DNA of 64,000 nucleotides from Methanocaldococcus indicus (GTDB taxonomy: Archaea; AGJL01; Methanococci; Methanococcales; Methanocaldococcaceae): positions 320,001 through 384,000 of the forward strand of contig NZ_CP186926.1 in NCBI RefSeq assembly GCF_049554935.1. The letters are read 5' to 3'. Below, piece by piece: positions 6,424 through 42,238 of the stretch. Made by a program: the position numbers and the translations under genes. Within the stretch, counting starts at the first letter, position 1. Every line of letters starts with the position of its first letter. The notes under the pieces are model-generated. The model made no database searches. It worked only from the letters and a program-made list of their open reading frames with translations, and was not told where the DNA came from.

Positions 6424-7587
6424 ATGATTAAGTTGGAGATAGATAAAAAAGCTTATGATTCAATAAAAAATTTTTCAAGGTTGATTTATACAAAAGCTAT
6501 AAAAAATAAAGAAGATTTGCCAAAAAAAGAAGAAATAGTTGTTTTAACATATAAAAATAGATTTGTTGCTAAGGCATTATATAACCCTAACTCAGTTATT
6601 ATTAAAATATTAACTATAAAGGATGAAGATATTGACTACAACTTTTTCTATAAAAGGATATTAGAAGCTAAAAAATATAGGGAAGATATAATAAAATATA
6701 AAAATACATATAGATGGATTTATGCAGAGGCTGATTTTTTACCAAATATAATTTTTGATAAATACAATGAACTTGGAGCTATGCAATTGATGTCTAAGCT
6801 TATTGAAAGAGAGTATTTAAAGGATATTGTTGATATTCTTTTTGAGCTTTCAGACTTAGAAACAATTTATATAAAGAGTGGAAAAAAAGGAGAAAAAGTA
6901 AAAGAGAAAGTTTTTGGAGATAAAAGCAAAAAAGAGACAATAATAACAGAGGGGGAAGCAAAATTTATAGTTAATGTGAAAGGGCATAAGACAGGCTTTT
7001 TTTTAGACCAGAGGGAGAATAGGCTATTTTTAGAGAGATTTGTAAAAGAGGGGGATAGAGTTTTAGATGTCTGTTGTTATACAGGAGGATTCTCTGTCCA
7101 TGCAGCTTTAAGAGGAGGTTATGTTGTTGGAGTAGATTTATCTAAAAAAGCTTTAAAAGTTGCTGAGGAAAATATGGAACTTAACAAAATCCCAAAAGAC
7201 AGTTATGAATTTATTGAAGGTAATGCCTTTGAAGTTATGGAATCTTTCTTAAATGATAATATATCCTTTGATACCGTTATCTTAGACCCTCCTGCCTTTG
7301 CCCAATCTAAAAAATCTCTTAAAAATGCTTTAAAAGGTTATTCTTCATTAAATTACTTAGGATTAAAATTAGCAAATAGAATTTTTGTTACTTGTTCCTG
7401 TTCTCATCATGTTGATAGAGAATTATTTAAAAAAACTGTCTTTTCATCAGCTTTTAGAGCTAAAAAAGAGCTTATCTTAATAGATTACAAAGGACAAGCT
7501 TATGACCATCCAATAACATTAGCAAACAAAAATTTAGAATATCTTAAATGTATATTTAGCTATGTGAGAGGCCAAGCTGAGCGGTAG
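6424..7587 (+). CDS. RlmI-like (PUA + class I SAM) RNA m5C methyltransferase
   Basis: HKTGFFLDQRENR, LDVCCYTGGFS, LDPPAF, TCSCS, EYLK motifs. Confidence 0.88.
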   Translation: MIKLEIDKKAYDSIKNFSRLIYTKAIKNKEDLPKKEEIVVLTYKNRFVAKALYNPNSVIIKILTIKDEDIDYNFFYKRILEAKKYREDIIKYKNTYRWIYAEADFLPNIIFDKYNELGAMQLMSKLIEREYLKDIVDILFELSDLETIYIKSGKKGEKVKEKVFGDKSKKETIITEGEAKFIVNVKGHKTGFFLDQRENRLFLERFVKEGDRVLDVCCYTGGFSVHAALRGGYVVGVDLSKKALKVAEENMELNKIPKDSYEFIEGNAFEVMESFLNDNISFDTVILDPPAFAQSKKSLKNALKGYSSLNYLGLKLANRIFVTCSCSHHVDRELFKKTVFSSAFRAKKELILIDYKGQAYDHPITLANKNLEYLKCIFSYVRGQAER

Positions 7588-7712
7588 TCATATTCATTGA
7601 GCTTAGCTCTCATCTTACCGCCCGCCCAATTGGCCTCTCTGTATCCCCAACATCGAACCCCGTATCCTCGCAACTAAATAGATAAGCTCAACGGGGCTCG
7701 GCAGTTGGGGAC
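7560..7712 (-). ncRNA. Two-hairpin box H/ACA pseudouridylation guide RNA
   Basis: GC-rich island. Minus strand folds into two hairpins (GUCCCCAAC/GUUGGGGAU and GAGAGGCCAA/UUGGCCUCUC), each with an internal pocket, tandem GA K-turn motif and a 3' ACA box (7640-7642, 7563-7565). TATA-like TTATATATA about 25 nt upstream. Confidence 0.88.
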
Positions 7713-7765
7713 TATATAAATATTTTTATTTAGAATATATATAATTTTCATTTACTGGTGGAAAT

Positions 7766-28543: not shown

Positions 28544-28616
28544 TGCGCCGGCCGGGATTTGAACCCGGGTCGCTGGCTTGGAAGGCCAGAGTGATACCAG
28601 GCTACACCACCGGCGC
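28544..28616 (-). tRNA. tRNA-Gly(UCC)
   Basis: GCGCCGG acceptor stem, CTGGC-CT-TCC-AA-GCCAG anticodon arm, GTTCAAATC T loop; followed by TCA rather than CCA. Confidence 0.97.
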
Positions 28617-28626
28617 TCTTTCAAAA

Positions 28627-28702
28627 TGGTGCGGCCTCCGGGATTTGAACCCGGGGTCCGGGCGTGGCAGGCCCGTGTGTTACCAGGCTACACCAAGGCC
28701 GC
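28627..28702 (-). tRNA. tRNA-Gly(GCC)
   Basis: GCGGCCT acceptor stem, CGGGC-CT-GCC-AC-GCCCG anticodon arm, GTTCAAATC, encoded CCA; 10-nt spacer to the next tRNA. Confidence 0.97.
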
Positions 28703-42175: not shown

Positions 42176-42238
42176 AGGGCTCAGTTGCGGGAGTAGTCAT
42201 CATTAAATATCAGATAGCGAAATTATCATCATTGCCCT
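42176..42238 (-). ncRNA. Dual-guide box C/D sRNA
   Basis: Minus strand: AGGGC-A-AUGAUGA(C)-UAAUUUCGCUAU-CUGA(D')-UAUUUA-AUGAUGA(C')-CUACUCCCGCAA-CUGA(D)-GCCCU. Four perfect boxes, two 12-nt guides, 5-bp terminal stem. Confidence 0.93.

Follow-up and report, generated by a model that had tools for sequence, protein, structure and literature searches.

A two-hairpin box H/ACA RNA of Methanocaldococcus indicus predicted to guide pseudouridylation of the U2504 equivalent in 23S rRNA

Introduction

The RNA known as HgcG, described as Pab40, Pf7, Pho40 or Afu4, is a three-motif box H/ACA small RNA (sRNA) of Thermococcales and Archaeoglobus, built from tandem hairpins that end in an ANA box and carry kink-turns (K-turns). 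Here, we describe a locus of this common build in a 64,000-nucleotide (nt) stretch of the Methanocaldococcus indicus genome (contig NZ_CP186926.1; the whole stretch is called the window), where the minus strand at positions 7563-7712 bears a two-hairpin H/ACA sRNA of ~150 nt with hairpin 1 (7640-7712) as its first module. Whereas HgcG has three consecutive motifs, two hairpins are found at this locus. An earlier note on this DNA had read hairpin 1 as a guide for pseudouridine (Psi) at the equivalent of Escherichia coli U2504 in 23S ribosomal RNA (rRNA).

U2504 belongs to the innermost shell of the peptidyl-transferase centre (PTC). In E. coli, Psi2504 is made by RluC, along with Psi955 and Psi2580 (PMC12710931, PMC13469067), and forms a mesh of tertiary contacts with ho5C2501 and m2A2503, the loss of which lets the PTC ring misfold (PMC13469067). 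Mutations at 2504 alter sensitivity to PTC inhibitors in archaea and in bacteria (bioRxiv 10.1101/2024.11.12.623245). In archaeal H/ACA RNAs, the ANA box stands 14-15 nt 3' of the pair that closes the pocket (PMC4652768, PMC2377435), and Toffano-Nioche et al. denote each hairpin by its GA stem, 3' guide and lower stem, in that order (PMC4652768). Residues of the M. indicus rRNAs are called 'own' residues; other rRNA numbers follow E. coli unless stated.

Results

We read the minus strand at 7563-7712, with a probability of about 0.7, as a two-hairpin H/ACA guide sRNA, the counterpart of Pab40/Pf7/Afu4, predicted from its sequence to guide modification of the U2504 and U2554 equivalents of 23S rRNA. 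Hairpin 1, 5' to 3' (7712-7640), runs GUCCCCAAC-UGCCGA-GCCCCGUUGA-GC(loop)GC-GAG-GA-UACGGGGU-UCGAU-GUUGGGGAU-ACA, and the coordinates, pocket strands, 14-nt ACA spacing and K-turn given for it by the earlier note all proved correct on the minus strand (Table 1). The GA stem has 10 layers (G.U, four C-G, G-C, U-A, U.U, G.A and A.G), which makes the hairpin a 10/5/9 fold in the scheme of PMC4652768; in that source, 10/5/9 is one of two crystallised fold families and a 10-layer GA stem occurs in 14 of 15 productive Pyrococcus abyssi folds. The K-turn, assigned from sequence and with a fold that we infer, has a GC/GC C-stem, a 3-nt GAG bulge (7667-7669) and tandem G.A/A.G layers followed by U.U, under a loop at 7672-7685. 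Hairpin 1 shows the structural hallmarks of an archaeal box H/ACA motif, namely a lower stem (7-9 base pairs, bp), a pocket, the ANA spacing, the K-turn layers and bipartite complementarity to a target.

The predicted folds are considerably more stable than those of shuffled sequences. Hairpin 1 folds at -34.5 kcal/mol, compared with -19.7 +/- 3.3 kcal/mol for its shuffles (z -4.5), and the 161-nt two-hairpin RNA reaches a z of -6.15; in each case, 0 of 200 shuffles were as stable. A BLAST search of the genus (17 genomes) with the 161-nt RNA gave one partial match only and was too insensitive, and a covariance model built from the single 161-nt sequence recovered orthologues in 15 of the 16 other genomes of the genus. 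With a model rebuilt from these orthologues, the sRNA was detected in every one of the 40 genomes that make up the class, which span five genera and include the genome that the first model had missed. The phylum-level search comprised the same genomes as the class-level one, and the distribution reported here is that within Methanococci.

Next, we examined the alignments of these orthologues for compensatory change. In the 39-row class alignment, 91.2% of cells pair, and 26 of the 37 pairs show changes in both partners; column shuffles give 16.3 +/- 1.5, with 0 of 500 as high as the observed value, and slid controls give 4-13. Double-change cells number 239 against 71.5 in shuffles. Similarly, 22 of 39 pairs change on both sides in the 17-row genus alignment, compared with 7.1 in shuffles (0/500). 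The alignments were fitted to the model structure and so favour it; even so, the slid controls are far lower. The K-turn bases are nearly invariant in the 39 sequences (G27 in 38, and A28, G50 and A51 in all 39), as is the first A of the hairpin 1 ANA box (39/39), whose middle base varies (C in 23/39, U in one genus). The ANA box tolerates such variation of its middle base. Hairpin 1 is, we conclude, very likely an H/ACA guide hairpin. The opposite reading, that there is no functional RNA here and that a GC-rich hairpin has arisen by chance, or serves as a terminator or some other structure marking the 3' end of the neighbouring methyltransferase gene, can point to hairpin 2, whose antisense overlap covers the final 22 nt of the open reading frame (ORF) at 6424-7587 on the plus strand. 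It is scarcely credible given the presence of the sRNA in 40/40 genomes with compensatory changes, the invariant K-turn and ANA bases and flanks that differ in relatives, and a terminator-like site was looked for at the locus and none was found.

Both own copies of 23S rRNA carry CAUCGAUGUCGGC, within GCUUGCUACAUCGAUGUCGGCUCUUCC, and the hairpin 1 pocket matches CAUCGA-U-G-UCGGC there, around own U2588, by 6+5 = 11 bp, all Watson-Crick; the sixth pair of the longer arm and the uppermost pair of the lower stem are in competition. In a scan for bipartite matches of at least 8 bp around an unpaired U-N, this was the sole site in the 2977-nt 23S rRNA, and the same rule gave no site in 16S rRNA. 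Alignment to the annotated E. coli 23S rRNA (2904 nt) equates own U2588 with U2504, C2594 with C2510 and U2580 with C2496. The target flanks AUCGA-U-N-UCGGC and the E. coli position U2504, both of which the earlier note had put forward, are therefore borne out by the cognate rRNA, and its proposal of an RNA-guided route to Psi2504, which stays a prediction, was favoured by every sequence-level expectation that had been set as a test of it. Taken together, these data make the U2504 equivalent the probable target of hairpin 1, a view that we hold with good confidence.

A stronger argument for this target than the match in a single genome comes from the co-variation of guide and rRNA, which we followed in the 19 genomes where the guide and its own 23S rRNA are both known; exact 17-nt patterns were too long for three genera, and the target segments were in part (five genomes) extracted directly. 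Position 2510 can pair in all 19 genomes (G-C in 3, G.U in 1 and A-U in 15). M. indicus (G000) and its relatives G003 and G008 have C2510 and the guide GCCGA, and fifteen others have U2510 and the guide ACCGA, while in G015 a U2510 stands opposite a guide G, a G.U intermediate. A partial 23S tree groups the four in the nested clade (G015,(G003,(G000,G008))), with supports of 0.975, 0.979 and 0.923. This is a classic compensatory path, in which the guide changed first from A to G, with the G.U pair tolerated, and the rRNA next from U to C. At position 2512, a pair forms in 11 of the 19 genomes, with C2512 opposite a guide G in seven and U2512 opposite a guide A in four. Guide and target form 10-12 bp in total in every one of the 19, and the first unpaired target base is always U. 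When the guide of a relative was scanned against its own 23S rRNA, the same site was the only or the best match, and the same held for the partial 23S locus of a sister genus.

Hairpin 2 has a predicted target of its own. Its pocket pairs with the 23S A-loop, GGGGCUG-U-U-CGCCCA, by 6+6 bp including two G.U pairs, around own U2638, the equivalent of E. coli U2554; the match emerged only once the G.U pair closing the upper stem was recognised. In the lower stem of hairpin 2, 8/8 modelled pairs change on both sides in the 39-row alignment, and the pocket cores are kept across the class. In yeast, the U2554 region of the A-loop is also the site served by snR10. The same A-loop region has been proposed as the target of Afu4 motif 2 (PMC2377435, PMC4652768).

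Individual relatives depart from this layout. In most of them, the bases beside the upper stem of hairpin 2 oppose each other as A.A or C.A rather than G.U. Three genomes of genus g3 (L094, L095 and L104) have the hairpin 2 pocket GGGUG/UAGU in place of GGGCG/CAGC; both differences are C-to-U, with G.U pairs preserving the match to the invariant A-loop, and the apical stem of hairpin 1 is longer and GC-rich in these three. In the sole genome of genus g4 (G037, locus L103), hairpin 1 is complete and has the usual pocket, but hairpin 2, which may have diverged or been replaced there, aligns only partly (45.9 bits for the whole). A draft genome of the genus carries an insertion of ~50 nt between the hairpins, and the model matches that locus in two pieces (L051, G012:C30:26373-26644).

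To relate the sRNA to described families, we searched Rfam. At gathering thresholds nothing was found at the locus, and a permissive scan gave HgcG (RF00064) only, at 45.3 bits (E 1.8e-11). The HgcG gathering threshold of 77 bits is thus missed here, as it is in three sister-genus loci (47.5, 44.4 and 25.1 bits). Other matches of the HgcG model across the genus were mostly a different single-hairpin H/ACA RNA and were set aside as not orthologous to the locus. In the loci examined from the sister genera g2, g3 and g5, a third hairpin is fused directly after hairpin 2 and aligns well to HgcG motif 3. We therefore regard the sRNA as best read as the Methanococci counterpart of Pab40/Pf7/Afu4. 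The earlier note had guessed at a known high-GC non-coding RNA of Methanocaldococcus, and this was half right: the RNA does match HgcG (Pab40), but below the family threshold, and hairpin 1 of HgcG reads the U2496 equivalent.

In the genus of M. indicus, the motif-3-like hairpin lies in a separate gene (L021, G000:C1:1379438-1379572, minus strand) with the pocket UGGGUUA/GUUAAA, and a three-hairpin gene appears to have been split here. The L021 hairpin pairs by 4+6 bp at own U2007 in helix 69, GGGGUAAC-U-A-UAACCC, which aligns to UAAC-U1915-A-U of E. coli; in this it is like Pab40 motif 3, which has the U1915 equivalent in helix 69 as its target (PMC2377435, PMC2584109). It also has an 11-bp match in 16S rRNA that includes G.U pairs.

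Such kinship raises the question of whether hairpin 1 is a plain orthologue of Pab40/Pf7 motif 1 acting at the same site, P. abyssi U2588, which corresponds to E. coli 2496 and is the site of snR46 in yeast. The HgcG model does align hairpin 1 to motif 1, and the target listed for that motif is P. abyssi U2588 (PMC2377435, Table 1), a number that equals our own U2588 and invites the Pab40-site reading. The targets of Pab35, 2549, 2672 and 2697, have however been equated with the RluE, RluC and RluB sites (PMC2377435), and from these equations the P. abyssi offset is 92, not 84, so that P. abyssi 2588 corresponds to 2496 in E. coli, and E. coli 2504 to 2596 in P. abyssi; the 2496 equivalent in M. 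indicus is U2580. The shared number is a coincidence. Own U2580 lies in GGCUUGC-U-A-CAUCGA, to which the hairpin 1 pocket has no complementarity, and the same-target reading was rejected at the sequence level, leaving it very improbable. No guide for own U2580 was found in the genome with a simple regular-expression search. Compared with Pab40 motif 1, hairpin 1 thus reads a U 8 nt downstream, and the rRNA segment C(C/A)UCGA is read by the 3' pocket strand here and, going by the Rfam consensus, by the 5' strand in Pab40.

Profile searches of the Pfam type in this 99%-complete genome detected genes for Cbf5 (TruB_N/Cbf5, 94.1 bits) and Nop10 (77.5 bits). PF00849, the family of RluA, RluC and RsuA, had no match in this genome, and the same search was positive in 10 bacterial control genomes.

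The features of the locus are collected in Table 1. A TATA-like box upstream of hairpin 1 is the putative archaeal promoter of the sRNA, and an A/T-rich TATA-like element stands at a comparable distance in most of 26 orthologous loci, as judged by eye. Because the flanks upstream of the sRNA differ among relatives, the overlap between hairpin 2 and the methyltransferase ORF may be specific to this genome. Elsewhere in the window lie a box C/D sRNA at 42179-42236 (minus strand; Rfam sR39, 68.6 bits, threshold 50) and two adjoining tRNA genes at 28544-28702 (minus strand; Rfam tRNA, 66.7 and 62.7 bits).

Table 1 Features at the sRNA locus, in window positions
Feature	Position	Strand	Basis and remarks
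Hairpin 1 lower stem, 5' strand GUCCCCAAC	7704..7712	-	Fold; 7/9 helix pairs change on both sides (39 sequences)
Hairpin 1 5' guide UGCCGA	7698..7703	-	GCCGA pairs with 23S UCGGC (E. coli 2506-2510); CCGA in 39/39 rows
Hairpin 1 GA stem, K-turn and apical loop	7657..7697	-	Fold; conservation of K-turn bases
Hairpin 1 3' guide UCGAU	7652..7656	-	Pairs with 23S AUCGA (E. coli 2499-2503); UCGA invariant, 39/39
Hairpin 1 lower stem, 3' strand GUUGGGGAU	7643..7651	-	Fold and covariation; 9 bp with GUCCCCAAC
Hairpin 1 ACA box (ANA)	7640..7642	-	Exactly 14 nt after the G.U pair closing the upper stem
Hairpin 2	7566..7639	-	Lower stem GAGAGGCCAA/UUGGCCUCUC, 10 bp; upper stem closed by G.U; K-turn region
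Hairpin 2 5' guide UUGGGCG	7623-7629	-	GGG in 39/39
Hairpin 2 3' guide CAGC	7576-7579	-	Pairs with 23S A-loop
Hairpin 2 ACA box	7563..7565	-	14 nt beyond the closing pair; the sRNA probably ends in this region
TATA-like box UUAUAUAUA	7736..7744	-	Putative promoter; pairing in hairpin 1 begins 23 nt downstream
ORF, 387 amino acids	6424-7587	+	N-terminal PUA domain and S-adenosylmethionine (SAM)-dependent methyltransferase domain (Methyltrans_SAM, RlmI-like by Pfam)

Discussion

The anatomy of hairpin 1, its conservation and its pairing suggest how the sRNA may act. L7Ae would bind the K-turn, and Cbf5-Nop10-Gar1 would settle on the lower stem and ACA box; the self-zipped pocket would then open, its 3' strand UCGA(U) pairing with 23S (A)UCGA (2499/2500-2503) and its 5' strand GCCGA with UCGGC (2506-2510). 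U2504-G2505 would stay unpaired at the base of the upper stem, at a distance of 14 nt from the ACA box, and there Cbf5 could isomerise the U; the resulting pseudouridine, at own U2588 of 23S rRNA, would correspond to E. coli Psi2504. At the U2554 equivalent of the A-loop, the same reaction would be guided by hairpin 2. We infer transcription, assembly of the ribonucleoprotein (RNP) and the modification itself.

Several observations weigh against guidance of this kind. In the minimum-energy fold of free hairpin 1, the pocket is closed by 4 bp, CGAG/UUCG, the self-pairing of pocket strands that the earlier note had anticipated; since the target arm UCGA is palindromic and the other arm is UCGG, the guide arms are necessarily part-complementary and such self-pairing is unavoidable. 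About two evolutionary events, in a small sample, account for the co-variation, and position 2512 is mismatched in 8 of the 19 genomes. The duplex formed by the 3' guide is only 4 bp long (UCGA) in 13 of these genomes, and where their 23S sequence is known at 2499, the final A of a UCGAA guide strand forms an A.A or A.C mismatch there; according to Muller et al., the 3' guide duplex is said to outweigh the 5' one in importance. Of the H/ACA proteins, Gar1 scored only 25.4 bits, below its 29.3 cut-off.

The match to the rRNA is, on its own, only moderately improbable: 55 of 2000 shuffled pockets (2.75%) reach 11 bp somewhere in 16S and 23S rRNA, and this leaves some room for the view that the real substrate is another RNA, such as a tRNA, a different rRNA site or an sRNA, with the U2504 match being fortuitous. 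A study of P. abyssi H/ACA RNAs reportedly found that single hairpins can serve several targets. One H/ACA hairpin serving several targets is also described in PMC11077068. A fortuitous match, however, would not be expected to have a guide base that tracks position 2510 so that it is pairable in 19/19 genomes, nor a position 2512 that pairs in 11/19, and with no second site of at least 8 bp in either 23S or 16S rRNA we regard this alternative as quite improbable.

A different doubt concerns the modification rather than the pairing. In most relatives, the pocket is ambiguous and can be drawn as U-N with a spare guide U or as U-N-N with an A-U closing pair, a U-N-N pocket being, as Muller et al. 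are said to have found, potentially functional. Published maps also speak for caution: domain V of P. abyssi has been largely probed and, in the accessible part of that work, none of its eight Psi sites is the 2504 equivalent (PMC2377435), while for S. islandicus the accessible part of PMC11077068 gives the 2457 and 1917 equivalents as the only sites in common with E. coli. The table for haloarchaea lists other sites and no 2504 equivalent (PMC2584109), and no modification data for Methanococcales 23S rRNA were found in the open-access literature.

A genuine H/ACA RNP may therefore pair with this 23S segment with no Psi arising at U2504, either as an assembly chaperone for the PTC strand in 50S folding or with U-N-N placing a neighbouring base. 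Complementarity and co-variation prove selection for pairing, not for catalysis; U2504-G2505-U2506 would be unpaired in most relatives if the A-U closing pair forms, and Psi at the 2504 equivalent is absent from the archaeal maps examined. Yet the M. indicus hairpin combines the canonical U-N with 10/5/9 geometry, productive in 14/15 tested P. abyssi folds in the accessible part of PMC4652768, and each of the 19 genomes has a U as the first unpaired base. We regard this alternative as unlikely. No archaeal H/ACA guide with a perfect pocket is known to us to be catalytically silent, although no search was aimed at this point. On balance, the sequence evidence leans towards pseudouridine being made at the U2504 equivalent, somewhat above an even chance.

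As regards evolution, we suggest tentatively, at rather less than an even chance, that in Methanococci hairpin 1 of an ancient guide of the Pab40/Afu4 type was re-aimed by 8 nt, from U2496 in helix 89 to U2504 in the PTC ring, with C(A/C)UCGA coming to be read by the opposite pocket strand, that an RNA-guided Psi2504 thereby converged on the product of RluC, and that guide and rRNA have co-evolved since. If true, this would be a rare stepwise view of the retargeting of a guide and of its later co-evolution with the catalytic core of the ribosome.

In the open-access literature, we found neither an archaeal guide for the 2504 equivalent nor a pseudouridine at it, and as far as that literature shows, the U2504 target is new for archaea. 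The gene for the sRNA could well have been listed before, in the search for H/ACA RNAs of M. jannaschii by Thebault et al. (2006), in the GC screens of Klein (2002) and Schattner (2002), or as the M. jannaschii motif in Fig. S11 of PMC4652768. The prediction is of an ordinary kind in a well-understood system, and its interest lies in the residue concerned. A class-wide guide in a lineage without RluC would mean that one base of a catalytic centre has acquired the same modification convergently through two unrelated recognition mechanisms, and would be the first RNA-guided route to Psi2504. Genetic tools exist for Methanococcus. The system is tractable in vitro as well, recombinant H/ACA proteins of M. 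jannaschii being available (PMC7075261).

Among described systems, sR-h45 of H. volcanii is likewise a two-hairpin H/ACA sRNA directed at functional centres of 23S rRNA, and has been tested in vitro with M. jannaschii proteins (PMC7075261). Unlike the sRNA described here, sR-h45 targets 1940/1942 and 2605 (H. volcanii numbering) and has a long spacer between its hairpins (PMC7075261). P. abyssi Pab35 (HgcF), which serves the RluE site, the RluC site 2580 and the RluB site, is a precedent for H/ACA guides replacing Rlu enzymes at the PTC (PMC2377435); it does not cover 2504, and in the accessible part of that paper no motif of Table 1 targets P. abyssi 2596. E. coli RluC and the M. indicus sRNA share the same predicted product at the same ribosomal position, but whereas RluC is a stand-alone protein of the RluA family, the sRNA is predicted to reach this base through RNA-guided Cbf5.

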